Below are positions 1-15,548 of a DNA stretch of 15,548 bases, piece by piece. The notes beneath the pieces were generated by a model. That model did no database searches and was not told the DNA's origin. It worked only from the letters and a program-made list of their open reading frames with translations. Position numbers and translations under genes: made by a program. Source of the stretch: a virus (taxonomy: Duplodnaviria; Heunggongvirae; Uroviricota; Caudoviricetes); the IMG/VR virus record IMGVR_UViG_2636416166_000011; one strand, 5' to 3'. Position 1 is the stretch's first letter. Each line of letters begins with the position of its first letter.

Positions 1-303
1 CTCCGGACGTAAATCACCATCCTTTGGTGCATTCAGAAACGCGTTCAGTGTCCCCGGTGCATCAGTCGGTGCCACATCAATATCCCCGACACGGGTTGGC
101 TGCCAGCCGTTACAGTGAAGCGCAACCTCGTAATACCCCGGCTCAGCCTCAATCACATAAGCACCGTTATTGTCCGTCACGCAAGTGGCAACAACGTGTG
201 CCACAACGGTCGGACTGGTTCTTCTGGCCCGCAGTTCAATCGCACAATTTACGACAGGTTTACCCGCCCCATCTTTCAGTACACCTGAAATCTTTACTGC
301 CAT
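1..303 (-). CDS. stf: Side tail fibre protein Stf, N-terminal 101 codons (partial; continues beyond window start)
   Basis: Minus-strand ATG at 303..301; translation MAVKISGVLKDGAGKPVVNCAIELRARR... matches my recollection of the lambda Stf N-terminus (MAVKISGVLKDG.GKPV.NC). Lies immediately downstream of lom as in lambda. Open to the window edge. Confidence 0.75.
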   Translation of the reverse strand, partial: MAVKISGVLKDGAGKPVVNCAIELRARRTSPTVVAHVVATCVTDNNGAYVIEAEPGYYEVALHCNGWQPTRVGDIDVAPTDAPGTLNAFLNAPKDGDLRPE

Positions 304-313
304 ATTCACCCCA

Positions 314-340
314 CAAAAAGCCCGCCTGAACCAGCGGGCT
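314..340 (-). terminator. Rho-independent terminator downstream of lom
   Basis: Minus strand reads AGCCCGC-TGGTTCAG-GCGGGCT followed by TTTTTGTGGGG: 7-bp GC-rich stem (plus 319..325 / 334..340) with T-run (plus A-run 314..318). Sits 27 nt after the lom stop. Confidence 0.6.
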
Positions 341-366
341 GTCATAACACTGTGTTACCTGGCTAA

Positions 367-966
367 TCAGAACTTATAACCGACACCCACGATGAAACCG
401 TCAGTGCGCCAGTCGCCACTGCCGGAACCTTCATAAGCAAGGTCAATGGCCACGGATTCGGTCGGGTTAAACTGCACGCCAGCCCCCCACGCCAGAGACG
501 TGTTGCTGTGGCGGTTGTCATCACTCCCGGTCAGCACATCGTGCGTTTTCCCCTTGTTGTCAGTTACGCGGAGATAATCCCCGGAGAAGGTCGACACACG
601 GCTGTAAGCCACGCCCGCCATCGCATACGCGCTGAACCATTCATTCACGCGCACAGACGGCCCCGCCATCACGCTGAACCAGCGGTTACGCACGGAATCC
701 TCATGCCAGCGGGTATCGCTGTAATGCGTTTTTTGCTCATCTTCAGCGTTGGCATAGCTGAATGACGTCACCAGCCCCAACGTGTCCGTAAACTCATAAC
801 GGTATTTCACGTTAATGCCCTTCAGGTCATCGCTGCCTGGCATATCAGTATGGGGCTGAAGATACCCGGCGCTCAGCGTGGACTGATGTTCAGACGCCCA
901 TGCAGGCGCACCGGATACAGCCAGACAGATGGCTGCGGACAAAATGGCTGCACAAACTTTACGCAT
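367..966 (-). CDS. lom: Lom outer-membrane protein (Ail/Lom family beta-barrel), 199 aa
   Basis: ORF 367..966, ATG start with GAGAGG Shine-Dalgarno upstream; N-terminal signal peptide (MRKVCAAILSAAICLAVSGAPAWA); C-terminal aromatic residue (…GVGYKF) typical of OMP barrels; position between J and stf as in lambda. Confidence 0.9.
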   Translation of the reverse strand: MRKVCAAILSAAICLAVSGAPAWASEHQSTLSAGYLQPHTDMPGSDDLKGINVKYRYEFTDTLGLVTSFSYANAEDEQKTHYSDTRWHEDSVRNRWFSVMAGPSVRVNEWFSAYAMAGVAYSRVSTFSGDYLRVTDNKGKTHDVLTGSDDNRHSNTSLAWGAGVQFNPTESVAIDLAYEGSGSGDWRTDGFIVGVGYKF

Positions 967-990
967 AATTACCTCTCGCTTTTCTGCAAT

Positions 991-1014
991 AAAAAAGGCA
1001 CCATTTCTGGTGCC
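991..1014 (-). terminator. Rho-independent terminator between J and lom
   Basis: Minus strand GGCACCA-GAAA-TGGTGCC followed by TTTTTTATTG (plus stem 997..1003 / 1008..1014, A-run 991..996). Starts 20 nt after the J stop. Confidence 0.6.
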
Positions 1015-1033
1015 CGTATCTGGGTTATAAAAT

Positions 1034-4000
1034 TCAGCTAATCGTGATGCCTGCAGTGGCTTTCTTCATCACAACAACCAGCAAATCGCTGATACTTGCT
1101 GTGGGATACCAGCCATTTACCAGCCATGCCGATACAGAAAACTCCAGCGTCATGTGACCGTGACCGGCAGGCATATCAATAACACCCGTATATATCAGCG
1201 TATTATCCAGGGTCGTTCGGTTATAAATTTCAGCACCGTTTTTCTTCACTATCAGGCTGCATGACGAATAAATATTGTTATTCTTCCGCTCATGTTTAGC
1301 ACCGCGAAACGCCACCGCGGGAATAACAATTTGCCGATCAAACGGCTGATCGTCATAAACCCTGACGGTAATGGTCCCTGATGGCCACCTCTCCGGTGCC
1401 CGGGAGTCCCGTGGGAAAGGTTTGCCCACTGTTTTAACGAGATCGCCTTCAATCTGGTTCGCGGACAATTTTCCCAGAACCCGACAGTTCTTATTAATCG
1501 TGACGTTGTTGAGCGTCCCGGAGTTCGCGTTCACGTTACCGCTGATATCGGCATTTTTCGCCGTCAGCCGTCCGCCAGGTGTCAGGGAAAATGCCGGAGG
1601 ATTACCGCCGCTGGTAATGGTCGGAGCCGTCAGGCGTTTCAGGAACACGTCGTTCATGAATATCTGATCGCCCTGACCAACAAACATCGGCTTTGTGTTG
1701 CCATTCGCAGGATTAATCATCGCAATCCTGTCTGCCGCCAGCAGCACCTGACTCTGCATTCCTGCTGGCGTATTCTCAATACCGGCACCGATACCCGCAA
1801 TATAAAGGCGTCCGTCCTTCATCTGTTGCAGCTTCACAGCCCACATGCTGTTCAGGTTATTATTTGTATCAACCTGAACTTTCTGTATCTGCTGGATTGC
1901 AGCACTCTGATTTTCCAGTTTTTTATTGACGGTTTGCGTGATTTCATTGCTGACATTCGTAATGGACGTCCTGATTTCAGTCAGGTCCGGCGCAAGCTGA
2001 CCGTTATCAATCTGCGTCCACAACTCCTTGCCGAGATGCGTGTTATTGATCAACCCTTTATAAAAACTCAGATAACCTTCCGCATCATCGCTCGCCCGAC
2101 CGACGGCCTCCACAAATGCCGATTTGCCAACGGTGTTCACACTGCGAACGTAAAAATAATAATCATGGCCCGGCCTGATATTGATACTGGCGGCTATCCA
2201 GTACAGCGCCGTGCCAAGATAGCGGGCGCTGGTTTCAACCTGCCTGATATCCGCAATCCGCTTTTCCGAAAACCAGAACTCAAACTGCACCGTCGGGTCG
2301 TATACAGCCAGTTTCGGGACCGCCGTTATCTGAAAATACCCCGGTATCAGTTCAATAGTGACGGCGCTGCCGGTGCGGCAATCCGGAACGATACCGACGC
2401 CGGATCGCCCTGCTGCCCCCGGGCATTTACCGCCCGGACTGTCAGACTGTAATTCCCCAGCGCCAGCTGCCTGAAGCGGTATGTGGTTTCCGTCGTCCTG
2501 GCTGTGCTGACCAGCCGCTCACTGCCGTCATCCGCTGCCACGGTCAGGCGAAGCAGGAAGCTCACACCCTTCACCACCTTCGGCGTGTCCCATCGCGCCA
2601 GCACCTGATATTCCCCGCTGTCTGCGGTGACTTCGGCGGTCAGATGCTGCACCGCTGGCGGCGTGACACCATTCACCGTGCCGCGCCGGTCACCGTCAAA
2701 GTGTGCCCCGTTATCCACGATGGCCTCTTTTTCCGGCACATGCTGCACGGCGGTGATGGCATACGTGCCGTCGTCGTTCTCACGGATACTCACGCAGCGG
2801 AACAGGCGCTGGCGCAGCGTCGGCAGCTTCAGCCCCCACACGCTGTATTCTGCAACGCCGTCAGGAACCCGGCTCACTTTCACCTTCACGCCGTCGGTGA
2901 CGGACTGAACCTCCACGCTGACCGGATTGCCATTTCCGTCAACCAGGCTTATCAGCGTGGTACAGGAGGACGGCAGCGTGATTTCACGGTCGAGCGTCAG
3001 CGTCCGGGTCTGGCTGTTCACCGCCAGTACGCGACCACCGGTGCTGATACCGGCATAATCATCATCGCAGATTTCAATGACATCACCCGGTACATGGCGA
3101 AGCCCTTCTGCGCCGACGCTGAAGTCCACGGTCTGCGTTTCCAGCAGTTCCGTTTTAATCAGCCACAGCCCGGCGCGGTGCGCCTGTCCCCGGCTGGTAC
3201 AGCCAAAGGCATCCATCTTCGTGACGTTACGACCGTAACGGAGAATGGCCTGCGCGTCCTCCACAAGCTCTGTCGCCGTCTCATGACCGTTGTCCGGATC
3301 AATCCAGTTCACCTCAACGACATTATGGCGGTCCTTCAGGGCGCTGAAGCTGTAGCGGAACGGCGCGCCATCATCCGGCATCACCACATTACTGCGGTTA
3401 TAGGTCCACACTTTATCCGACGGTCGGTCCTGCACGAACGTCAGCGTCTGCCCGTTCCATACCGGCATACAGCGCATCGCCGAGCAGAAATCACTGAGAA
3501 CATCCCACGCCTTACGCTGTGTGGTCAGGTAAGCGTTACAGGTGATGCGCGGCTCCGTGCCGCCAAATCCGTCCGGCACTGACTGGTCGCAGTACTGGCC
3601 GATGACATACAGCGCCCATTTGTCCACATCTGCCGCACCAAGACGTTTCCCCATGCCGTAGCGCGGATGAGTGAGCATGTCCCACCGACACCAGGCCATG
3701 TTGTTGCTGTATGCTGGCTTAAGCGTTCCGTCCCAGATACCGCTGTATTGCCGCGTCTGCGGGTTATAGTTCGACGGCACCTGCAGAATGCGCCCGCGAA
3801 GATGATAATTGCGACTCACCTGCTGGTTACCGAACTGCTCTGAATCCACCTGCACGCCGACCAGCGCCGTGTTCGGGTAGCACTGTTTCACATCGATGAT
3901 TTCGGTGTATGACGACCAGAGCGTTTTGTTCTGCAGCTGGTCTGTGGTGCTGTCCGGCGTCATCCTGCGCATCCGGATATTAAACGGGCGCGGCGGCAGG

Positions 4001-4512
4001 TTACCCACCACCACCGAGGCCAGATACTGCGAAGTGGTTTTGCCCTTAATGGTGATGTCTTTTTCCGTCACCCAGCCACCGTTACGCTGTATCTGAACCA
4101 GCAGGCGGACTTCCGACGGATTCCGGTCCCCCTTTGAGGTGTTTTCCACCAGTGCCTGCACACCGAAGGTCAGGCGCAGACGATCAATGTTTGCCGACGT
4201 GATGGTCCGGGTGATCGGCGTGTCGTATTTCACTTCCGTACCCAGCACAGTCTCTGAGCCGGAAGATTCAACCCCCTCCGGCGGTGTCTGCTCCTGCTCG
4301 CCGGCGCGGAACACCACCGTAACACCGGAAAAGTTTGTCTTCCCCTCGCTGTCCAGGACTGGCGTACCGTTCAGCAGCACGCTTTTTAATCCATCCACCG
4401 GACCGTCAACCGGCCCTTCGCTGATGGCATCAATCACACTCAGCAACTGCGTGGATTTCAGGTTGTCCTTCGCTTCGCGCGGGGTATGCCCCTTACTGCT
4501 GCCTTTACCCAT
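1034..4512 (-). pseudogene. J: Tail tip host-specificity protein J (central fibre), reading frame broken near 2356..2361
   Basis: Two ORFs in different frames: 2347..4512 (721 aa, MGKGSSKGHTPREAKDN... ends ...[13 protein letters not shown]) and a second frame open from upstream of 2400 to 1034 (…[33 protein letters not shown]… to …[10 protein letters not shown]). Lambda J as I recall it reads ...[19 protein letters not shown]..., so the two frames join with an apparent 1-nt deletion in minus-strand TCAC-TATTGAA. Combined length about 1159 codons versus 1132 in lambda. Confidence 0.85.
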
Positions 4513-4533
4513 TCCTCACGCTCCATAAACGAC

Positions 4534-4554
4534 AAAACCGCCCGCAGGCGGTTT
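4534..4554 (-). terminator. Candidate stem-loop (weak terminator/attenuator) in the I-J intergenic region
   Basis: Minus strand AAACCGCC-TGCG-GGCGGTTT followed by TGTCGTTT; 6-bp GC stem (plus 4537..4542 / 4547..4552). T-run is interrupted, so termination efficiency is doubtful. Confidence 0.3.
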
Positions 4555-4572
4555 CACATGAAACATTTTGCA

Positions 4573-5214
4573 TCAGCGACCAATCACCACAACCTGACCA
4601 CCATCCCCTTCGTCTGCCGTGCTGATCTCCTGAGATACCACCCGCGACCCCACGCGCATTTCACCGTACAGAACAGGCAGAACATTGCCCTGGGCAACCA
4701 TGTTATCCAGTGAGGAGAAACAGGTGTTCTGTTTGCCGTTATCCGTTGTCTGTGTACGGGGAGTTCTGGCTTTCGGTGCCAGCATCTGTGCAACACCGCC
4801 AAGCGTCATACTGGCACCGAGAGAAAACAGCAGATTACTCGCCATAATTCCTACCCCCGGCATCCATATAGCAACCGCCATAACAGCTGCCCCCAGCACC
4901 GCCTGAAACACACCGCCACTTTTAGCTCCCACCAGACGCGGTACTATGTGGATCACTGCACCATTTGCCAGCGGCTCATTAAGACGGGCAGACAATTCGG
5001 TTTCACCTGCATCACGCCCGGCAATGCGCACCTGATACCAGCCGTCACTCAGTTTCTGACGAAACGCCGGGAGCTGTGTGGCCAGTGCGCGGATGGCTTC
5101 AGCCCCCGTTTTCACACGAAGGTCGATGCGGCGGCCAAATCGTTGCAAATCCCCGTAAAGGCAGATGCGTGCCATTCCCGGTGACGCCAGAGGGAGTGTG
5201 TGCGTCGCTGCCAT
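4573..5214 (-). CDS. I: Tail tip assembly protein I, 213 aa
   Basis: Translation MAATHTLPLASPGMARICLYGDLQRFGRRIDLRVKTGAEAIRALATQLPAFRQKLSDGWYQVRIAGRD... and C-terminus ...VLYGEMRVGSRVVSQEISTADEGDGGQVVVIGR match lambda gpI as I recall it; central hydrophobic segment. Confidence 0.85.
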   Translation of the reverse strand: MAATHTLPLASPGMARICLYGDLQRFGRRIDLRVKTGAEAIRALATQLPAFRQKLSDGWYQVRIAGRDAGETELSARLNEPLANGAVIHIVPRLVGAKSGGVFQAVLGAAVMAVAIWMPGVGIMASNLLFSLGASMTLGGVAQMLAPKARTPRTQTTDNGKQNTCFSSLDNMVAQGNVLPVLYGEMRVGSRVVSQEISTADEGDGGQVVVIGR

Positions 5215-5855
5215 TTGTCGGTATACCTCTCTCGTTTACTCAGTTGTTCAGGAATATGGTGCAGCAGCTCACCGTCGCCGCAGTAAATGGCGGCATGATT
5301 CGGCACCGATGAACCAAAACAGCACAGCAGCACATCGCCCGGTTGTGCTGATGACAACGGCACCTGATACAGCCCTGTGGCCTCCAGATTATCCAGATAG
5401 AGATTCTGACCGTGACGCCACCAGTCATCCCCGCGATGAAAATCCGGCATCTCAATCCCCGCCAGATGATAAGCATCCCGGAACAGCGTGTAACAGTCCG
5501 TCACCCCGTGCTCAAAGCGCCGCCCGGTGAGATGCGGCACACAGCGGAACTTGTGAATCGCCCCCCGGCAGACCAGCCACCACGGCAAATCACTCTGCAC
5601 CTGCAGCCGCCGGTCAGCCTCACTCAGCCAGGGCAGACCACCGGGATGACTGTGGACCAGTGCCACAATCTCCCCCTGCATCTCTGCCCGCAGCCAGTCT
5701 TCCGGTGCGATACGAAAATACGCCTCCGGCTCTGCAGAAATATTCACACAAGGGATATACCGCTCCCCCTCCGGCGTTCTCACCACGAAGCCACACGACT
5801 CCGCTGGCGCACATCGCCGGGCGTGCGCCAGAATCGCTGATTCTGTCTGTGTCAT
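5112..5855 (-). CDS. K: Tail tip assembly protein K (MPN/JAMM plus NlpC/P60-like domains), 247 aa
   Basis: The six-frame ORF 5112..6119 is over-extended; the real start is the ATG at 5855 (MTQTESAILAHARRCAPAESCGFVV...), 4 nt after the L stop. Contains HSHPGG (JAMM-like) and Cys/His/His residues (VTDCY, NHAAIY, LLHH) of an NlpC/P60-type fold. Overlaps I by 103 nt. Confidence 0.8.
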   Translation of the reverse strand: MTQTESAILAHARRCAPAESCGFVVRTPEGERYIPCVNISAEPEAYFRIAPEDWLRAEMQGEIVALVHSHPGGLPWLSEADRRLQVQSDLPWWLVCRGAIHKFRCVPHLTGRRFEHGVTDCYTLFRDAYHLAGIEMPDFHRGDDWWRHGQNLYLDNLEATGLYQVPLSSAQPGDVLLCCFGSSVPNHAAIYCGDGELLHHIPEQLSKRERYTDKWQRRTHSLWRHREWHASAFTGICNDLAAASTFV

Positions 5856-5859
5856 GGAT

Positions 5860-6559
5860 TTACTGAGAAAGTTTATTGATGGAAAGGAAACCGCCGAAAT
5901 TACCGGTATTGTTGCGCAACTCACACCCGCGCATACACTTGCTGCATTTGTCCTTCCGGATATCCGTCGTTGGTTTGTCGAACTCGTCAGCCACTGCCCT
6001 GCCCGTGTAACCACACTCATCAGAACGGTAGGTCCACATACAGGTATTCGCCAGCATGATACGCCCCGGGAAAACCGCGCCATCCGTCTCCGTTGGTGTG
6101 GCCAGCACAAAAGAGGCACTGACCGCGCTCAGTTCGCTGCACTGCTCGATGCGCCAGCGGCTGATCACCTCCTGCTCCGGATCGGCGTCACTGTTTCCGT
6201 TGACGAAGTTCACCGCATCCAGAAAACGGGCGTAAACCTTACGCCGGACCACCGTTCCGCCGACCAGACTCTGCAGATCTTCCGCCATCCCGGCGACCAT
6301 ACCGTACAGGTTAGAAACCGTCAGCGTGGGGCGCGTACTGGTGCCTTTGCCATTCAGTTCAAAACCACTCCCCCTGAATGGGATACGGCTGATACTGTCG
6401 CCCCTGCCAGGTGACCGGCTCACCTTTTTCGTTCTGCTCATTACAGAAAAAATAACGTTCTCCACCGACCTCTGTCAGGTCGATTTCCCAGAGCACCACG
6501 CTGGCCGACTGCTCCGCACGGGTGCATTCATTCAGTGTTTCCTGCCGGATATCCTGCAT
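5860..6559 (-). pseudogene. L: Tail tip protein L, reading frame broken at a C5/G5 homopolymer (6370..6374)
   Basis: N-terminal ORF 6359..6559 (MQDIRQETLNECTRAEQSASVVLWEIDLTEVGGERYFFCNEQNEKGEPVTWQGRQYQPYPIQGEWF*) and second frame down to 5860 (…GSGFELNGKGTSTRPTLTVSNLYGM…FGGFLSINKLSQ*). Removing one G from minus-strand CAGGGGGAG gives ...YPIQGSGFELNGKG..., the lambda gpL sequence as I recall it. ATGA overlap with the M stop at 6559. Confidence 0.85.
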
Positions 6560-6888
6560 CAGTTCACCACCTGTTCAAAATCGGCCGTTACAGTCACCCA
6601 TAACGCCCCCACGCTTGCCGACCATTTACGACAAGCCACCCTGATCGGTTTCCAGTCATAAGGTGGCGTCCACTGAAATGCGCGGACGCCACCGTGCCGT
6701 TCCAGAAAGGCTTTTAAAGGTGGGTGTTCACCTTTACGAACACGTATCGTCACGCTGTAAGTCGACAGCAGATTATTCAGTCCCGCCGGGCGACGCTGTT
6801 CATAACCATCACCCAGCTTCACTGCCACCACTTTTGGCTCTGATACCACATTCATATCCGGGCGCACCTTCCAGCGAAACGTCTCCAT
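6559..6888 (-). CDS. M: Tail tip protein M, 109 aa
   Basis: METFRWKVRPDMNVVSEPKVVAVKLGDGYEQRRPAGLNNLLSTYSVTIRV...FEQVVN; same length as lambda gpM and collinear with it as I recall; start overlaps the H stop (TAATG). Confidence 0.85.
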   Translation of the reverse strand: METFRWKVRPDMNVVSEPKVVAVKLGDGYEQRRPAGLNNLLSTYSVTIRVRKGEHPPLKAFLERHGGVRAFQWTPPYDWKPIRVACRKWSASVGALWVTVTADFEQVVN

Positions 6889-9800
6889 TACCGGTATGCT
6901 CCACTTAACCGGCCACCATCACGGGCCTGCTGTTGCATAAAGTCCGCGGCCGCTTTTTTCCCGAGGTCATAAACCACCTTCAGTGCTGCCGGACCTATCT
7001 GCCCGTTCGTGCCGTCGTTATTGATCCCGATGTTGTACTGCGGGGCAAACATCACCATGCCTGAACCACCAGTATCCGCCACAACCCCCAGCTTACCATC
7101 AGCACCGCGACGCAGTGGCAGAATGGCTTTAGGTCCCGCTTCCCCCATCACACCCGCGCCTTTTGCAAAAGCAAAAAACGTCGGACGGTTAACCACCGTG
7201 CCACTGTAGCGACTCAAATCAGCAGACTGGTAAACACCGCCATCAGCATTAGTCGTGAAGCCGAATAAAGAGCCGACGCCCTTTACCGCCTGCATCATGG
7301 CCATCTGTGCCATAATTCTGGCCATATCTGACAACAGGGAAGAGGTGAAGGATTTAAAATTCAGCTTACCGGTGGTACAGAATGTCGCCAGTGCATTACC
7401 GGCACTGCTGAATGCCACTGTAAACATCTGTTCTGCCGTTCCCACCGCATTATCCGCATCCGCCGTAAAATTCTGAAACGCCCGCATGGCACCGTTTTTC
7501 CAGTCGCCCTGCGCCACTTCCAGTTCCTGCCAGTAGCGTTTGTTTTCATTCAGTTGTCGCTTCAGGCTCCCCTTCAGCACCTCCTCAGCCCTCCGGTAGT
7601 CCTCCGTCCCGTAAGTGCCTTTCTGGCGACTGTCATTCTCAAGCTGTTGCAACTGTTGCCGGTATTCCTGCCGGATGCGCAACTGTGCCTGGTAGCGCTG
7701 CCGCTGCTTATCCCCCATACCTGCAGTGGCAATATCCAGATTGTGCTGCTCACGCAGTGCACGTTCTTTGTCTGCCAGCTGGCTGGTCAGCTGAACCGTT
7801 TTTTTTCTCAGGTCGTTAAGCGCTGTCTGTTTCTGCAGCTCCTGCTGTTTCACATCCAGCAGCGTCAGCGCCTGAATCAGCTCATTCTTACGGGCCAGCA
7901 CACTCTTTTCATCTGCCGTCAGCTTTTTCCCGTCCAGGTCGCTGATGCGCTGCTGCAGGGCCAGAAGCTGTTTATGCGCTTCAGTCATCCTTTCAGTGGC
8001 AATGCCTGCTGACTGTCTGGCAGCAGCAATCTGCCCTTCCACCTGTGCCTGCTGCTGACTGTACTGCAGCAATAACCGGGTGGCCTCATCATTACGGGTT
8101 GCCCGTGTATTTTTCTTAATGGCTTTTTCGTAACGTTCATTTTCACGCTGTATCGCCGCATCCCTGACAGCCTGGTCGGCGTACTGCATGGCATTAATAC
8201 GCGCAATTTCCCGCTGATGTCGTGCAGCTTCCGTTTCATTCATCCGGTTCAGCGCGGCATTTTCAGCATTCCGGCGTTTCTGTTGCTCCTGGTAATTCCG
8301 TTCTGCCTGCGCTTTTGCATCCTGCAAATCCTTCCGGCGTTTTTTCTCCTGAAGATCGTTAAGACGCTGCTGATCGTACTCCACCTGTGTGGAGGCGTTT
8401 GTCCACGGATATTTTTTCGCGCGCTGAATTTTTTCCTGTAACGCATCAATCTGCGCATCCAGCGAGTCTTCACGACCAATATTCATGGCCGCATCCCAGA
8501 ACTGCTTCCACCAGTCAGACAAGGTTTGCAGCGTACTACCCAGCGCATTGAGATTATTATCAATATCAGATGTGCGTTTACCGGTTTCCTCTGCCAGCGC
8601 AGACATGGCGATCCGGGCCGCATCACTGGACCGCCCCTGCTCCCCAAGGACGCGTATCTGCTCAAGCTGAGTGGCAGTCAAAAAATGCAGCGCATTGTCC
8701 AGCGCCTTCGCGGCATTTACAGGATCATCCTTCAGCCGCTTAAACTGATTTATGGTATCGCTGACCGACTGGCCAACCGATCGCTCCATCTGTGCGGCAG
8801 CTTTCGCCACCATACCAATATCGTTTCCATGAAATGCCCCACTGCCCACCACCTGTGCCAGCGCACCGGCTGCCGCATGTTGCGTGATACCATTCCCGGA
8901 TATGGCCCGGCTGAGTTTCCACAACTGCCCGACAGTGACACCGGCATAATGTCCCGTCAGCGCCAGCTGACGGTTAAATTCCTCGCCCTCCTTCCGGCCG
9001 TCATGCCAGGCTTTACCCAGACCCAGGACCGCCGCGACAAGTCCGCCAATAACGCCGCCAGTCATCATGCCTTTCGGCGACATCAGTGCGCCTGTCCATC
9101 CGGCACGGTTAGCCAGCGTTATCCCGGATCCCCTCAGCGCACCAAAATTGCCGCGCGCCATCTGACTGATTAACACCCCCAGCTCCCGCCGGGCTGCCGC
9201 ACTTTTCAGCCCCAGCGAATGTGTGGCTTTTCCTGCCCGCTCCATTTTGCGGATATACACTTCTGCAGCACTGCTTACCCCCAGCTGAGCCGCCCTGGCG
9301 CGAAGCAACTCAGAAGACGACAGATTCTGGCGGGTTGCCTGCTCTTTAAGCTGGCGGATAAACGCCGCTTTCTGCCGGGTGGCCTGTTCCTCTGCCTGCG
9401 TCAGGGCACGGGTTTTCGCCGTGATCTCCGAAATCAGCGCCAGATAATCCTGCTGACCAACCCCGCCACTGTTTCTGGCCTGTCGGATCTGCTGCTGAAT
9501 ACGCTGTAATTCCTGAAGCCCCGCACCGGCCTGTTTCACACTGTCAATCTGGCGATAAAAGGCGGCAGCCGCTTTATCCTGCGCCTCCGCCAGTGCCCTG
9601 GCCTGCGCCTGTTCCTCGCGCATTTTCTGATTCAGGGCATCCACGCGCAGACGGGTTTGTTCCACCTCACGGGCCATGCGTTCATGAGCCCGTGCATTCT
9701 TCTCCACCGTCTGCGCATGGGCTGATGCTGCTGTTGCAGCCGAAGAAGCCGCATGCATTGTCTGCCGGGCCGCCTGAGTCTGACGCTCCATAAAACGCTG

Positions 9801-9929
9801 CATACGGGCAGAAGACCGTTCTGCATCACCGGCTGCACCATTCAGAAGGTTTTTGATACGGGGAATTTCATTTTTAAACTCTGCCGCATCAATCCCCAAA
9901 TCAATGACCAGGTTGGCTATCTGGTCCAT
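6888..9929 (-). CDS. H: Tail tape measure protein H, about 1013 aa
   Basis: Long ORF with a coiled-coil-rich, Q/R/E/A-rich central region; N-terminus MDQIANLVIDLGIDAAEF and C-terminus ...NNDGTNGQIGPAALKVVYDLGKKAAADFMQQQARDGGRLSGAYR resemble lambda gpH ends. Start chosen at ATG 9929 preceded by GGAGG (9940..9944); the ORF track begins at an upstream TTG at 9959, which is possible but less likely. Confidence 0.85.
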   Translation of the reverse strand: MDQIANLVIDLGIDAAEFKNEIPRIKNLLNGAAGDAERSSARMQRFMERQTQAARQTMHAASSAATAASAHAQTVEKNARAHERMAREVEQTRLRVDALNQKMREEQAQARALAEAQDKAAAAFYRQIDSVKQAGAGLQELQRIQQQIRQARNSGGVGQQDYLALISEITAKTRALTQAEEQATRQKAAFIRQLKEQATRQNLSSSELLRARAAQLGVSSAAEVYIRKMERAGKATHSLGLKSAAARRELGVLISQMARGNFGALRGSGITLANRAGWTGALMSPKGMMTGGVIGGLVAAVLGLGKAWHDGRKEGEEFNRQLALTGHYAGVTVGQLWKLSRAISGNGITQHAAAGALAQVVGSGAFHGNDIGMVAKAAAQMERSVGQSVSDTINQFKRLKDDPVNAAKALDNALHFLTATQLEQIRVLGEQGRSSDAARIAMSALAEETGKRTSDIDNNLNALGSTLQTLSDWWKQFWDAAMNIGREDSLDAQIDALQEKIQRAKKYPWTNASTQVEYDQQRLNDLQEKKRRKDLQDAKAQAERNYQEQQKRRNAENAALNRMNETEAARHQREIARINAMQYADQAVRDAAIQRENERYEKAIKKNTRATRNDEATRLLLQYSQQQAQVEGQIAAARQSAGIATERMTEAHKQLLALQQRISDLDGKKLTADEKSVLARKNELIQALTLLDVKQQELQKQTALNDLRKKTVQLTSQLADKERALREQHNLDIATAGMGDKQRQRYQAQLRIRQEYRQQLQQLENDSRQKGTYGTEDYRRAEEVLKGSLKRQLNENKRYWQELEVAQGDWKNGAMRAFQNFTADADNAVGTAEQMFTVAFSSAGNALATFCTTGKLNFKSFTSSLLSDMARIMAQMAMMQAVKGVGSLFGFTTNADGGVYQSADLSRYSGTVVNRPTFFAFAKGAGVMGEAGPKAILPLRRGADGKLGVVADTGGSGMVMFAPQYNIGINNDGTNGQIGPAALKVVYDLGKKAAADFMQQQARDGGRLSGAYR

Positions 9930-10250
9930 AACGCACACCTCCGGAAATACCTTCCCCAAGATGCATCAGTTCTTCGTCCGTTCGCTCCGGTATCCCGTTC
10001 TCTTCCGGTAAAAGGCTGAAATCAGCCACCGCAGCATCACTGCTGCCGGACACCATTCTCACGATCAATGCCTTCAGCGAGGCAAACTGCGCATCCATCC
10101 ACACATCACTGAAGCTCTGCATCCGGAAATAATCGCCCCCTCACCAAGCTCAGTGGCCGACATTTCCGACAGCATCCGCCGCCAGTCTGCCCGCCGGAAC
10201 TCCCGGGCAAGCCGCATGACAAACTGCATTTCCCGCGTCAGGACTTTTCC
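9901..10250 (-). pseudogene. T: Tail assembly chaperone T region (expressed as G-T fusion by -1 frameshift); the T frame itself is interrupted at a C5/G5 run (10136..10140)
   Basis: The -1 frame relative to G is open from 10262 to a stop at 10074 (…AGKVLTREMQFVMRLAREFRRADWRRMLSEMSATELGEG…). A third frame is open from 10140 to 9901 (GGDYFRMQSFSDVWMDAQFASLKALIVRM…GPDSQPGH*), ending 29 nt inside H. Adding one G to the minus-strand G5 run would fuse the two into one T-length ORF of about 120 codons. Confidence 0.6.
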
Positions 10251-10627
10251 GGCGTCAGCGCCTCATGATCATCATCCCCGGCATTCTCAATGGTCCCCAT
10301 ACCGCTCAGCGACAGAACCCTCTCCGCCCCCGCGCCCAGCGCATCATACGACCATGTTGTCATAATGGATGCGCAAAGCGTCTCAACATCCTGAGACTGC
10401 TCAGCATTCCACAGTGAGCGGGAAACCAGCCAGGCATTGATATCCATTCCCATACGCAGAAAAGCAATCTGTCGTTCAGCCTCCGGCAGTTCTCCCTCCT
10501 GTGCATCAAACTTTGCCGTTCGCTGCTGAACAAACGTCAGATATTCAATTCTCTGCAGCCCGGACAGCTCACTGAGCACCACGGACTGTTTTTCATAATT
10601 AAACGTATCCTGTTTCAGAAACATCAT
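10238..10627 (-). CDS. G: Tail assembly chaperone G, about 129 aa
   Basis: ORF 10238..10642 begins at a TTG; more likely starts are the tandem ATGs at 10627/10624 (MMFLKQDTFNYEKQSVVLSELSGLQRIEYL...) with GGAG 6 nt upstream. Acidic C-terminus (...ENAGDDDHEALTPEKS). Position between V and T/H. Confidence 0.8.
   Translation of the reverse strand: MMFLKQDTFNYEKQSVVLSELSGLQRIEYLTFVQQRTAKFDAQEGELPEAERQIAFLRMGMDINAWLVSRSLWNAEQSQDVETLCASIMTTWSYDALGAGAERVLSLSGMGTIENAGDDDHEALTPEKS
10244..10250 (-). other. Putative -1 programmed ribosomal frameshift site for G-T fusion (GGAAAAG)
   Basis: Minus-strand heptamer G-GAA-AAG in the G frame, 2 codons before the G stop. The -1 frame opens just upstream at 10262, so the shift must occur in the last 8 codons of G. 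Position matches lambda, where the slip site as I recall is G-GGA-AAG. Confidence 0.4.
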
Positions 10628-10640
10628 GTTCTCCGGATGC

Positions 10641-10663
10641 AAAAAGCCCCGGATAACCGGGGC
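10641..10663 (-). terminator. Rho-independent terminator between V and G
   Basis: Minus strand GCCCCGG-TTAT-CCGGGGC followed by TTTTTG (plus stem 10646..10652 / 10657..10663, A-run 10641..10645). Begins 20 nt after the V stop and ends just before the G Shine-Dalgarno. Confidence 0.6.
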
Positions 10664-10682
10664 AATGATGAGTATCGTCCTG

Positions 10683-11423
10683 TTATGGTGCGCTGACGGT
10701 CACCGCAGCCACTGCCACAAACTCTCCGTCAGAGGTCATGCCCACGATGCTGACACTGCCCTGCTTCACGCCTTTCACCGTGGCCACAAGCCCGCTCAGG
10801 GTCACCGAAGCAGTCTGAGGATCTGACGAATGCACACTGATCGCTTTGTCACTGGCCCCGTCAGGTTTTACTGTAAAGGTCAGTGTGGTGGTTGCTCCCG
10901 CTTTGACACTGACAGATGCCGGTGCCACCGTCAGTCCGGTAACACCCACGGTTTCAGCGCCCTCCTCTGCCAGATACGGACGCCCCACACCGCTGATTTT
11001 TACAGTACGGGTCATCACCTCTTTTGAGGTAATGGTTTTACCCAGTGAACTCAGCCAGCCACGGAAAACATCAACCGTACCGTTGGGGTATTTGATACGA
11101 AACGCGCAGACTTCACCGGAATCGAACAACTGAACCAGTTTTTTCTGCCCGCTGTCACCCGGACGCCAGGCCAGCGTCGCCAAAGTATCACCGACGGATT
11201 TCTGCCCCTGGGTTGTCGTTTTCCAGTCTGCATCTTCATCATCGAGATAAGTGTCATCTTCTGCATCAGCGGTCATTTCGCCAGGTTGCAGATCCTTCAC
11301 CATCGCAAGACGCAGCCAGTCAGTGTCCGACAAAGGGTTCGCAAACGCATCGCCCTTGCCGGTGTACATCCAGAACGTCGTTCCCGCACCTTTCGTCTTT
11401 GCCAGTGGATTTGGTGTGGTCAT
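10683..11423 (-). CDS. V: Major tail tube protein V with C-terminal Ig-like (Big_2-type) domain, 246 aa
   Basis: The ORF track starts at an upstream alternative codon; the real start is ATG 11423 (MTTPNPLAKTKGAGTTFWMYTGKGDAFANPLSDTDW...) preceded by AAGGAGG. Collinear with lambda gpV as I recall (…YLDDEDADW…FPNGTVDVFRGW…) and same length. Confidence 0.9.
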   Translation of the reverse strand: MTTPNPLAKTKGAGTTFWMYTGKGDAFANPLSDTDWLRLAMVKDLQPGEMTADAEDDTYLDDEDADWKTTTQGQKSVGDTLATLAWRPGDSGQKKLVQLFDSGEVCAFRIKYPNGTVDVFRGWLSSLGKTITSKEVMTRTVKISGVGRPYLAEEGAETVGVTGLTVAPASVSVKAGATTTLTFTVKPDGASDKAISVHSSDPQTASVTLSGLVATVKGVKQGSVSIVGMTSDGEFVAVAAVTVSAP

Positions 11424-11433
11424 TGCCACCTCC

Positions 11434-11835
11434 TTAATTCGTGTACGTGATCTGGTACGTGATTTCCGCCATCGCCCAGGTGGCCATCTCATTATCACGT
11501 TGATAGTTAAAACCGAGTGGGATCATGGTGTCGATGAGTCCGGAAAGCACCGGAATATCCTTCATGGCCGGAAATATGGTGTTCTCCATCCACGTATCCA
11601 GCTCAGAATCCGGCGCCTGTGCACGGACGAAAACGGCAATATGCAGAACAGCCTGCCAGTCGTCCTCATCCGTCATTTTTCCGGTGTACTGCGCATCACT
11701 CAGCCACACCGCCACGGCGGGCAGTTCCTGCGCATCAATAAATGCCGGAAGCCCGTCAAAAAGCACGACATTCCCCCCGCATTCGCCCTTCAGGCTTGCC
11801 AGTACTGCCTGGCGGATTTGTGTGTGCCTGTTCAT
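11434..11835 (-). CDS. U: Tail tube terminator protein U, 133 aa
   Basis: MNRHTQIRQAVLASLKGECGGNVVLFDGLPAFIDAQELPAVAVWLSDAQYTG... resembles lambda gpU (MKHTELRAAVLDAL...FFDGRPAVFDEADFPAVAVYLTGAEYTG...) as I recall; ATGA overlap with the Z stop. Confidence 0.85.
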   Translation of the reverse strand: MNRHTQIRQAVLASLKGECGGNVVLFDGLPAFIDAQELPAVAVWLSDAQYTGKMTDEDDWQAVLHIAVFVRAQAPDSELDTWMENTIFPAMKDIPVLSGLIDTMIPLGFNYQRDNEMATWAMAEITYQITYTN

Positions 11836-12419
11836 CCCAAATGTATCCTCAGTTGCTGTTTCAGGGCATACCCCAGCTGTTTCGGCATTTCCGCGGCAAT
11901 GATGCGATCGCGGGCATCCTCAAATGCCTGTGTCAGCGGTCCGGCCAGCGGAATTTTCACAACCTCCACGGGCAGACGATTTTTTCTGGGCCGCCCCTTA
12001 CTGTCCTTTCCTGTTTCAAAACACGCTTCAGGAAGACGCCTGAGAACATGCCAGCGACCGTTCGCCAGCTGCTGGATAAACGCACCACGAAAAAAGTATT
12101 TCCCCACCTTCAGTCCGTCACCGGCACGCCGGCATGTTGTGCCAAGCTTAATGGCGGGCAGATTGCCCCGGTTAACACGGATACGGGCATACATTTTTCC
12201 TGCCGGACTGGCTTTAAATACCCGGACGCGCTGACGCACCAGTTTCAGGGGGCCCCCCTTCACCTGGTTATCTCCCGCAACGGTATTCCTGGCGACCTGC
12301 CGGGTGGCAACCGAGACAACTTTTGCAGCAACCCGGTTTACTGCCCATGCGCTGGCCTGCGGCACCATACGGGTATCAAGACTGTTCAGATTGCGGATGG
12401 CATTCTCAAGCCCCCTCAT
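11832..12419 (-). CDS. Z: Tail completion protein Z, 195 aa
   Basis: MRGLENAIRNLNSLDTRMVPQASAWAVNRVAAKVVSVATRQVAR...GAFIQQLANGRWHV...VVKIPLAGPLTQAF...LGYALKQQLR resembles lambda gpZ (MKGLERAIQNLNSL...GAFIQQLKNGRWHV...) as I recall. Confidence 0.85.
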   Translation of the reverse strand: MRGLENAIRNLNSLDTRMVPQASAWAVNRVAAKVVSVATRQVARNTVAGDNQVKGGPLKLVRQRVRVFKASPAGKMYARIRVNRGNLPAIKLGTTCRRAGDGLKVGKYFFRGAFIQQLANGRWHVLRRLPEACFETGKDSKGRPRKNRLPVEVVKIPLAGPLTQAFEDARDRIIAAEMPKQLGYALKQQLRIHLG

Positions 12420-12564
12420 AATATCCCCCTGCCCTTACGTTTCCTGCTCCTTCACGCCGCAACCGGATATAACTACATCCGCCGTCATCAGGAGTAATAC
12501 GATCCACGCTGAAAGACTCCCGGCCAATCATCAGCGAATCATTGCGACACAGCTGTAAAATATC
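12406..12564 (-). pseudogene. FII: Head-tail joining protein FII, 3' fragment (last 52 codons), truncated by IS66 insertion
   Basis: Minus-strand frame entering from the IS66 boundary reads DILQLCRNDSLMIGRESFSVDRITPDDGGCSYIRLRREGAGNVRAGGYYEGA*; compare my recollection of the lambda gpFII C-terminus ...RQLRRGDTLTIGEENFWVDRVSPDDGGSCHLWL.... Stop overlaps the Z start. No start codon; the frame is cut by the IS66 left end. Confidence 0.6.
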
Positions 12565-12589
12565 GTAAGCGTAAACTGACCGCCGTATG
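12565..12589. repeat. IS66-family left terminal inverted repeat
   Basis: GTAAGCGTAAACTGACCGCCGTATG, matches the right end in inverted orientation. Confidence 0.7.
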
Positions 12590-12650
12590 TAGCCATTAAG
12601 CCTGTATTGGTAACGTAGGTGCCCACCTTTTCAACTAGTGGACACCTGTT

Positions 12651-13070
12651 ATGGAACAGAAAGCATTATCTGCAGAACCCCGCAGATCATTTTCAAATGA
12701 GTTTAAACTTCAAATGGTTAAACTGGCTTCACAACCAGGAGCCTCTGTTGCCCGTATTGCCCGGGAACACGATATCAATGATAACCTGCTGTTTAAATGG
12801 CTCAGGCTCTGGCAGAACGAAGGGCGCATATCGCGGCGTCTTCCGGTAACAACCTCTTCTGACACTGGCGTTGAATTATTACCTGTGGAGATAACGCCGG
12901 ATGAGCCGAAAGAACCTGTGGCTGGTCTTACTCCGTCTTTATCTACTCAGACTACAGTTAGTGCCAGCTCCTGCAAGGTGGAGTTCCGTCACGGTAACAT
13001 GACGCTGGAAAATCCTTCACCAGAGCTGCTCACAGTGTTGATCCGTGAACTGACCGGGAGGGGACGATGA
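12651..13070 (+). CDS. IS66-family accessory protein TnpA (orf1), 139 aa
   Basis: First ORF of the element (MEQKALSAEPRRSFSNEFKLQMVKLASQPGASVARIAREHDINDNLLFKWL..., helix-turn-helix-like N-terminus); stop overlaps the orfB start (ATGA). Confidence 0.8.
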   Translation: MEQKALSAEPRRSFSNEFKLQMVKLASQPGASVARIAREHDINDNLLFKWLRLWQNEGRISRRLPVTTSSDTGVELLPVEITPDEPKEPVAGLTPSLSTQTTVSASSCKVEFRHGNMTLENPSPELLTVLIRELTGRGR

Positions 13071-13417
13071 TCTCACTCCCGTCAGGCACCCGCATCTGGC
13101 TCGTTGCTGGGATAACCGATATGCGTAAGTCTTTCAACGGGCTGGGTGAACAGGTACAGCATGTGCTGAATGATAATCCCTTCTCCGGTCACCTGTTCAT
13201 CTTCCGTGGCCGACGGGGTGACATGATTAAAATCCTGTGGGCTGATGCTGATGGTCTGTGCCTGTTCACCAGACGCCTGGAGGAAGGCCAGTTTATCTGG
13301 CCTGCTGTGCGTGACGGCAAGGTATCCATTACCCGCTCGCAACTGGCAATGCTCCTCGATAAGCTGGACTGGCGTCAGCCAAAAACATCCCGCCTTAATG
13401 CACTGACAATGTTGTAA
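13067..13417 (+). CDS. IS66-family TnpB (orf2), 116 aa
   Basis: MISLPSGTRIWLVAGITDMRKSFNGLGEQVQHVLNDNPFSGHLFIFRGRRGDMIKILWADADGLCLF... is the characteristic IS66 Orf2 sequence; translationally coupled to orfA. Confidence 0.85.
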   Translation: MISLPSGTRIWLVAGITDMRKSFNGLGEQVQHVLNDNPFSGHLFIFRGRRGDMIKILWADADGLCLFTRRLEEGQFIWPAVRDGKVSITRSQLAMLLDKLDWRQPKTSRLNALTML

Positions 13418-13447
13418 AAATGTCATGGCCGGATTATAAAAACGGCC

Positions 13448-15040
13448 ATGAATCAAAAATACCTCATTCGCATTGCAGAACTGGAATGCCAGCTCCGTCA
13501 GAAAGACCAGCAACTGAGTCTGGTTGAAGAGACGGAGGCCTTCCTGCGCTCTGCACTGGCCCGCGCCGAAGAAAAGATCGAAGAAGATGAACGGGAAATA
13601 GAACATCTGCGGGCTCAGATAGAAAAACTGCGCCGGATGCTGTTCGGTACCCGTTCTGAAAAACTGCGTCGTGAAGTTGAACAGGCTGAGGCCCTGCTGA
13701 AACAACGCGAACAGGACAGTGATCGTTACAGTGGGCGGGAAGACGATCCGCAGGTTCCCCGCCAGTTGCGACAGTCTCGTCATCGTCGCCCGTTACCGGA
13801 GCATCTGCCCCGCGAAATAAATCGCCTGGAGCCAGAAGAAAGCTGTTGCCCGGAGTGTGGCGGTGAGCTGGATTATCTGGGGGAAGTCAGCGCAGAACAA
13901 CTGGAACTGGTGAGCAGCGCTCTGAAAGTGATCCGCACAGAACGGGTAAAAAAAGCCTGTACAAAATGTGACTGCATCGTTGAAGCACCGGCACCATCCC
14001 GTCCGATAGAGCGTGGTATCGCGGGCCCGGGGTTACTTGCCCGCGTGTTAACGGGAAAATACTGCGAACACCTGCCACTGTATCGTCAGAGTGAAATTTT
14101 TGCCCGTCAGGGTGTCGAACTGAGCCGTGCATTACTCTCCAACTTGGTTGACGCGTGCTGCCAGTTAATGACGCCGCTGAATGATGCTCTGTACCGTTAT
14201 GTAATGAACAGCCGCAAAGTTCACACTGATGACACACCAGTAAAAGTGCTGGCACCGGGCAGGAAGAAGGCGAAAACAGGATATATCTGGACGTATGTCC
14301 GGGATGACAGGAATGCCGGTTCGCCAGAGCCTCCGGCGGTCTGGTTCGCCTACTCACCGGACCATCAGGGTAAACATCCGGAGCAGCACCTTAGTCCCTT
14401 CCGGGGTATCCTGCAGGCAGATGCGTTTAATGGTTACGATCGGCTGTTCAGTGCCGAACGAGAAGGCGGCGCGTTGACGGAAGCAGGATGCTGGGCTCAT
14501 GCGCGGCGCAAAGTCCACGATGTATATATCAGTACCAAAAGCGCGACAGCGGAAGAAGCCCTGAAACTAATCGGTGAGCTGTACGCCATCGAGCACGAAA
14601 TACGCGGGTTGCCGGTGTCTGAACGCCTGGCGGTCAGGCAAATGCAGAGTAAACCGCTACTGACTTCCCTGTATAAGCTGATGCAGGAGAAAGAACACAC
14701 GTTATCGAAAAAATGCCGTCTGAGAGATGCGTTCCGGTATATCAGGAAGCACTGGGTTGCGTTGTGCAACTTCAGTGATGATGGTCTGGCTGAGGCGGAT
14801 AATAATGCCGCGGAAAGAGCGCTTCGTGCAGTCTGTCTCGGAAAGAAAAACTTTATGTTCTTCGGCAGCGATCACGGTGGAGAGCGTGGTGCGCTACTGT
14901 ACGGGCTGATCGGCACCTGCCGACTGAACGGTATCGATCCGGAAGCGTATCTGCGCTATATCCTGAGCGTACTGCCGGAATGGCCTTCCAACCGTGTTGA
15001 CGAACTCCTGCCATGGAACGTAGCACTCACCAATAAATAA
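13448..15040 (+). CDS. IS66-family transposase TnpC (orf3), 530 aa
   Basis: N-terminal coiled-coil/leucine-zipper region, zinc-ribbon CPECGGEL...CTKCDC, then DDE-type catalytic core (…HTDDTPVKVL…YIWTYV…, …DAFNGYD…, …CWAHARRKV…); ends just before the right inverted repeat. Confidence 0.85.
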   Translation: MNQKYLIRIAELECQLRQKDQQLSLVEETEAFLRSALARAEEKIEEDEREIEHLRAQIEKLRRMLFGTRSEKLRREVEQAEALLKQREQDSDRYSGREDDPQVPRQLRQSRHRRPLPEHLPREINRLEPEESCCPECGGELDYLGEVSAEQLELVSSALKVIRTERVKKACTKCDCIVEAPAPSRPIERGIAGPGLLARVLTGKYCEHLPLYRQSEIFARQGVELSRALLSNLVDACCQLMTPLNDALYRYVMNSRKVHTDDTPVKVLAPGRKKAKTGYIWTYVRDDRNAGSPEPPAVWFAYSPDHQGKHPEQHLSPFRGILQADAFNGYDRLFSAEREGGALTEAGCWAHARRKVHDVYISTKSATAEEALKLIGELYAIEHEIRGLPVSERLAVRQMQSKPLLTSLYKLMQEKEHTLSKKCRLRDAFRYIRKHWVALCNFSDDGLAEADNNAAERALRAVCLGKKNFMFFGSDHGGERGALLYGLIGTCRLNGIDPEAYLRYILSVLPEWPSNRVDELLPWNVALTNK

Positions 15041-15045
15041 GCGTC

Positions 15046-15308
<263 letters not shown>

Positions 15309-15548
15309 CCCCTTCTCATTCAGGCCACGGATAATGGTGGTGTACAGACCATCCTGCGTGCTCAGTGACGGCGGGAATGAAGTTTCAATCGGACGAACAA
15401 CGACCACGCCAGAATTCAGATCGGTGTGCTCATTCAGGAGATCGATTTGCCAGTCAACAAAGGCGCGCAGGAAGTTACCTTCACCAAACTGAATGATACG
15501 TTCTGGATACTGTGCACCGGGAATATCGCGACGATTTAGTGTTTTCAC
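15309..15548 (-). pseudogene. uxaB: Altronate oxidoreductase (tagaturonate reductase) UxaB, N-terminal 80 codons only; 3' part removed at the IS3-family element end
   Basis: Minus-strand translation from the window edge (GTG at 15548..15546) [80 protein letters not shown] matches my recollection of the E. coli UxaB N-terminus (mannitol-dehydrogenase family Rossmann fold). The stop codon ending the ORF at 15306..15308 is the terminal TGA of the IS element, not a native stop; the full protein is about 480 aa. Confidence 0.7.

Follow-up and report, generated by a model that had tools for sequence, protein, structure and literature searches.

The tail tip gene L in a 15,548-nt stretch of prophage DNA (hereafter the window) is interrupted by a single-nucleotide insertion, and comparison with related loci indicates that this is very probably an inherited mutation, fixed within a lineage in an already defective prophage, and that L is now an ordinary pseudogene. 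At least ten independent Shigella flexneri serotype 6 assemblies show an identical break, which argues for an inherited mutation and against a sequencing error. The window matches NCBI contig AMJU01000140.1 (21,227 nt) at 100% identity, and is best read as the tail-gene remnant of a lambda-like prophage adjoining an ipaH effector gene in S. flexneri serotype 6 or a close relative.

On the minus strand, the L frame opens at the ATG at 6559..6557 and reads MQDIRQETLNEC...PYPIQGEWF before it terminates at the TGA at 6361..6359, giving a 66-codon open reading frame rather than an uninterrupted gene. The lesion, CAGGGGGAG, is a run of five Gs (CCCCC on the plus strand, 6370-6374) where intact relatives have four, which identifies the run as the frameshift site. 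Past it, the neighbouring frame continues from 6372 as GSGFELNGKG...SINKLSQ and is free of stops until the TAA at 5862..5860. Only the first 63 residues of the 66-aa fragment are native; residues 64 and 65 (E and W) are read out of frame, and F66 coincides with the native residue by chance. Deleting one G restores a frame of 232 aa that aligns from 1 to 232 with residues 1-232 of the lambda 'Tail tip protein L' (PDB 8iyk_L; E = 4e-149). The first-pass annotation, which had described a frame ending in PIQGEWF with a stop at 6359, a gene continuous to 5860 when four Gs are read, and collinearity with lambda gpL, was thus accurate in every detail on these points.

The two halves are also recognizable separately. 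The Phage_tail_L profile (PF05100) matches the N-terminal fragment over profile positions 1-36 with 54.1 bits and the C-terminal fragment over positions 59-206 with 217.1 bits, against a cut-off of 25 bits in each case, and gene callers report a 146-aa open reading frame at 5860-6300 for the remainder. The C-terminal cysteines of gpL bind an iron-sulfur cluster. The corresponding cysteine columns are conserved here relative to 8iyk_L, but they are encoded in the shifted frame only, and the 66-aa product therefore lacks them.

Features of the window, in window coordinates.
Feature	Position	Strand	Basis
Host-specificity gene J, 721 + 418 aa, 1-nt deletion at 2363	1034..4512	-	
Tail assembly gene I, intact	4573..5148	-	
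Tail tip gene K, JAB + NlpC/P60 domains, intact, 247 aa	5112..5855	-	
L remainder, shifted frame, GSGFELNGKG...SINKLSQ*	5860..6372	-	Translation, 8iyk_L alignment and PF05100
L N-terminal fragment, 66 aa, ...PIQGEWF*	6359..6559	-	Open reading frame and PF05100
L frameshift site, five-G run	6370..6374	-	Sequence and comparison with intact relatives
Tail gene M, intact, 109 aa	6559..6888	-	
Tape measure gene H, intact, 1013 aa	6888..9929	-	
Tail assembly gene T, split by 1-nt deletion at 10140	9901..10229	-	
Tail assembly chaperone gene G, intact	10238..10624	-	
Tail gene Z, last phage gene before truncation	11832..12419	-	
IS66-family insertion sequence, three ORFs, ends GTAAGCG...CGCTTAC	12565..15071	+	
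Chromosomal mannitol-dehydrogenase-family gene fragment	15306..15548	-	

The phage part of the window is a lambda-type tail operon on the minus strand, comprising Z, U, V, G, T, H, M, L, K, I, J, lom and the start of a tail-fibre gene, with L lying between M and K. All genes other than J, L and T are at full length when compared with the prophages of Escherichia coli CFSAN029787 and FDAARGOS_943. The lambda G-T slippery heptamer GGGAAAG is absent from the 3' end of G (10238-10260, minus strand), which reads CCG GAA AAG TCC TGA; any programmed -1 site here must therefore differ from that of lambda.

Phage homology stops at 12564, where a complete IS66-family element with GTAAGCG termini and open reading frames of 139, 116 and 530 aa abuts Z. 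Beyond this element lie an IS-like piece and then the N-terminal part of a mannitol-dehydrogenase-family gene, and this segment (15072-15548) is the chromosomal edge of the prophage remnant. Related loci carry, beyond the mannitol-dehydrogenase-family fragment, a gene for a 472-aa GGDEF protein. Because the element adjoins Z on one side and leads into chromosomal genes on the other, head, lysis, regulatory and replication genes are absent, and indeed no head, lysis, regulatory or replication/early genes occur in the window. The lack of phage sequence on the far side of the element indicates that it marks a place where DNA was deleted or rearranged, not one where it simply inserted.

The split form of L is widespread in one group of Shigella. 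We found CCCCC at the L site in all ten of the assemblies encoding the 66-aa fragment that were fetched (AERO01, AKMW01, AKNB01, PSSU01, AMKG01, AMJU01, AMJZ01, LSCP01, LPTI01 and CP026811.1), which come from several WGS projects. AERO01 (strain CDC 796-83) and AKMW01 (strain CCH060) are S. flexneri serotype 6 (PMC4206707), as is strain 64-5500 (PMC9455713), whose sequence CP026811.1 is a closed chromosome. The five-C loci are 99.8-100% identical to the window and have their prophage lesions in common with it. Exact matches to the 66-aa fragment are on record on 64 contigs, in 109 index blocks, the longest contig being 4.66 Mb, and those to the 146-aa product of the L remainder on 58 contigs; the split gene has in fact already been deposited, as two 'phage minor tail protein L' coding sequences in CDC 796-83 and CCH060. 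Three of the loci, those of CDC 796-83, 64-5500 and CCH060 (L003, L004 and L007), additionally carry an IS3-family element inserted near the end of J, on its 3' side, at a site equivalent to window positions 1069-1074, which shortens J to 1149 aa. The window lacks this insertion, which thus defines a sublineage of the serotype 6 group.

A comparison with 5,426 complete E. coli genomes gave as the closest intact relatives the ipaH-adjacent prophages of CFSAN029787 and FDAARGOS_943, which we take to be enteroinvasive E. coli. Both are 98-99% identical to the window over positions 1-11984, and both have CCCC and an annotated intact L. Relative to the two, the window shows only three uncompensated 1-nt indels, namely a deletion at 2363 in J, the insertion at 6370 in L and a deletion at 10140 in T. 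The four-C state is also found within Shigella: the repaired 232-aa L protein (with Ala89) is intact on 34 Shigella contigs, some of them source-named S. boydii, and eight of these contigs have CCCC and 99.5% DNA identity to the window. These four-C Shigella loci form a distinct haplotype, 38-39 substitutions removed from the window, and at this locus the five-C allele serves as a clean marker, telling the serotype 6 group apart from the four-C Shigella most closely related to it.

One four-C locus gives a view of the upstream region. In the closed chromosome CP026766.1 (locus L013), the only sister-lineage locus at which the states of T and the IS66 junction could be read, the Z/IS66 junction and the T deletion are identical to those of the window, and V and H bear IS insertions of their own. 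The truncation of the prophage and the T frameshift thus predate the split of the two lineages, and the prophage was already defective when L broke. The T lesion itself is a 1-nt deletion at plus-strand position 10140, CCCCACTC becoming CCCCCTC, that is common to every related Shigella locus reaching the site, including 10/10 serotype 6 group assemblies as well as CP026766.1. Since the latter has it together with an intact L, the T deletion came before the L frameshift. A total of 478 recorded contigs carry the 73-aa T fragment.

The J lesion is of a different kind. Only the source contig has the deletion at 2363, each of the two J fragments is on record on a single contig, and the deletion is present in no E. 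coli genome. The same contig has private substitutions at 2377, 2530, 3910 and 3958 in J and at 7130 in H. More than 2,600 E. coli records have J genes that combine 3910T with 3958C and match at 100% identity, and 2377G is present in a J gene of a single E. coli strain; at least some of these E. coli J genes belong to other prophages. The J variants suggest either that gene conversion took place with a paralogous prophage as donor or that reads from paralogous J copies contaminated the consensus (a collapsed paralog), and the deletion in J could have arisen as an artefact of assembly or by recent mutation.

The lesions are nested by lineage, with the T deletion and the IS66 junction common to both lineages, the L insertion confined to the serotype 6 group and the J deletion private. 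Read from this distribution, the order is T as the oldest lesion, L as one fixed in the serotype 6 group and J as one peculiar to the contig. This order agrees with the published phylogeny, in which serotype 6 sits beside S. boydii (PMC9455713). The first-pass annotation had linked the disruptions of T, L and J; all three are indeed present in the sequence, but with their differing ages and distributions, treating them as one phenomenon is only partly justified. Its proposal of relaxed selection on a defective prophage is supported for L and T, given the ten of ten assemblies, the missing head and early region and the junction and T deletion in the sister lineage.

Taken together, these comparisons are consistent with a simple course of events. 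The head, regulatory and replication regions were lost through an IS66-associated rearrangement, and T was frameshifted, before L. After the lineages split, the coding-strand G4 of L became G5 in the serotype 6 group, probably by replication slippage, so that the tail tip protein, 232 aa in its intact form, breaks off once 63 native residues have been read. Since the prophage by then had neither head nor early regions and carried a frameshifted T, the mutation in L is likely to have been neutral and to have been fixed by descent. The simplest account is that a slippage mutation was fixed neutrally while selection was relaxed, and the locus is presumably not expressed.

An alternative, which we regard as improbable, is that the frameshift is leaky. 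The mutant L messenger RNA would read AGGGGG-AGUGG-UUU-UGA-A (6359-6377, minus strand; the 30-nt cassette around the site is CAGGGGGAGUGGUUUUGAAC), which partly resembles the +1 frameshift site of prfB, AGGGGG-UAU-CUU-UGA-C, of which natural variants with TTTTTGA exist (PMC12421855). A Shine-Dalgarno-like AGGGGG and a slippery XUU-U with UGA (here UUU UGA) are both in place, and pairing of the L AGGGGG with the anti-Shine-Dalgarno sequence, computed with the core of the 16S sequence (CCUCCU), amounts to -9.4 kcal/mol, compared with -10.6 kcal/mol for prfB. As only three codons of L are out of frame, a +1 slip of tRNA-Phe at UUU-U, aided by AGGGGG, would restore a full-length L altered only by S64E and G65W. 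On the other hand, a spacer of 5 nt (AGUGG) takes the place of the conserved 3-nt one, and the stop is followed by A rather than by the C of the weak UGA-C context. The motif was born by the mutation itself and has no conserved counterpart, as close relatives and lambda read through with four Gs. Moreover, with T frameshifted and the head and late-control regions missing, there would be no tail for a rescued L to help build. Were this reading true, ribosomes could bypass the stop at a measurable rate, and L would be a naturally occurring pseudogene softened by a recoding site that arose by chance. Transcriptional slippage on the G5 run is likewise improbable, as productive transcriptional slippage requires much longer runs, usually of A or T.

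It is still less likely, to the point of being very unlikely, that the extra C stems from a homopolymer error, made in sequencing or assembly of this draft genome, and that L is really intact. An added base in a homopolymer is a classic type of error, spurious pseudogenes caused by assembly errors are common in public genomes (PMC11017572) and the same contig has its private 1-nt deletion in J. Against this, the five-C run is also present in nine other assemblies from several projects, one of them a closed chromosome, and the existence of a close four-C lineage means that the two states follow phylogeny. None of the 74 homopolymer runs of at least 5 nt in the window differs in length from its counterparts in five sister assemblies (L004, L007, L008, L010 and L011). 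Two further assemblies are visibly error-prone elsewhere, yet both have five Cs in L: L005 (PSSU01000001.1) has five private homopolymer contractions, and L006 (AKNB01000209.1) has private 1-nt deletions at three sites, of which two are homopolymers. The private 1-nt contractions in these two (in C6, C5, C4, G5 and T8 tracts), which split the gene calls of Z, K, H and the IS66-family element, are probably sequencing errors.

The concordance of all 74 runs and the agreement of L005 and L006 at the L site rule out, at the level of these assembled sequences, a systematic homopolymer problem in this stretch, and make an error at 6370 very unlikely. The deletions in J and T likewise involve no change in homopolymer length, each dropping a lone A, and the sole indel private to the source assembly, that at 2363 in J, lies outside homopolymers. 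The suggestion of systematic indel errors in the assembly, offered earlier as the other explanation of the broken genes, hence finds no support. The case also illustrates how a real frameshift may be told from an assembly error in the absence of reads, the former being common to independent assemblies and nested by lineage and the latter private.

Homopolymer tracts do slip recurrently, but the idea that the C4 tract is a mutational hotspot at which the five-C state arose several times independently is extremely improbable in view of the near identity and common lesions of the five-C loci, the distinct haplotype of the four-C Shigella loci and the result of a 901-nt query that found no 100% match among complete E. 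coli genomes in RefSeq (the best being 900-nt alignments at 99.7%).

An inherited, neutral frameshift in a decaying prophage therefore remains our preferred reading, and it can be set beside several known systems. The prfB (RF2) +1 site has its AGGGGG, XUU-U and UGA in common with the mutant L, which differs in its 5-nt spacer and 3' A, its lack of conservation among homologues and the absence of any autoregulatory logic. Compared with lambda, whose gpL is a PF05100 protein of known structure (PDB 8IYK and 8XCG), the window matches the gene order Z-U-V-G-T-H-M-L-K-I-J-lom and its repaired L is likewise 232 aa long and alignable from end to end; the window phage is nevertheless a relative and not lambda itself, as the lengths of H (1013 aa) and K (247 aa) indicate, and its L is broken after codon 63. 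The prophage of CFSAN029787 and FDAARGOS_943 is flanked by ipaH, tail-fibre and lom genes as at the window locus, and its L (WP_001152598.1) differs from the repaired L of the window only by T89A. It carries the four-C form, however, with L, T and J all intact, and in CFSAN029787 the head genes are kept upstream of Z, unlike in the window. Prophage decay in Shigella is well established, and the case of L matters little beyond bookkeeping: the locus is not substantially different from other examples of such decay, and IS insertion, IS-associated deletion, single-base frameshifts and lineage-nested lesions are all represented here too.
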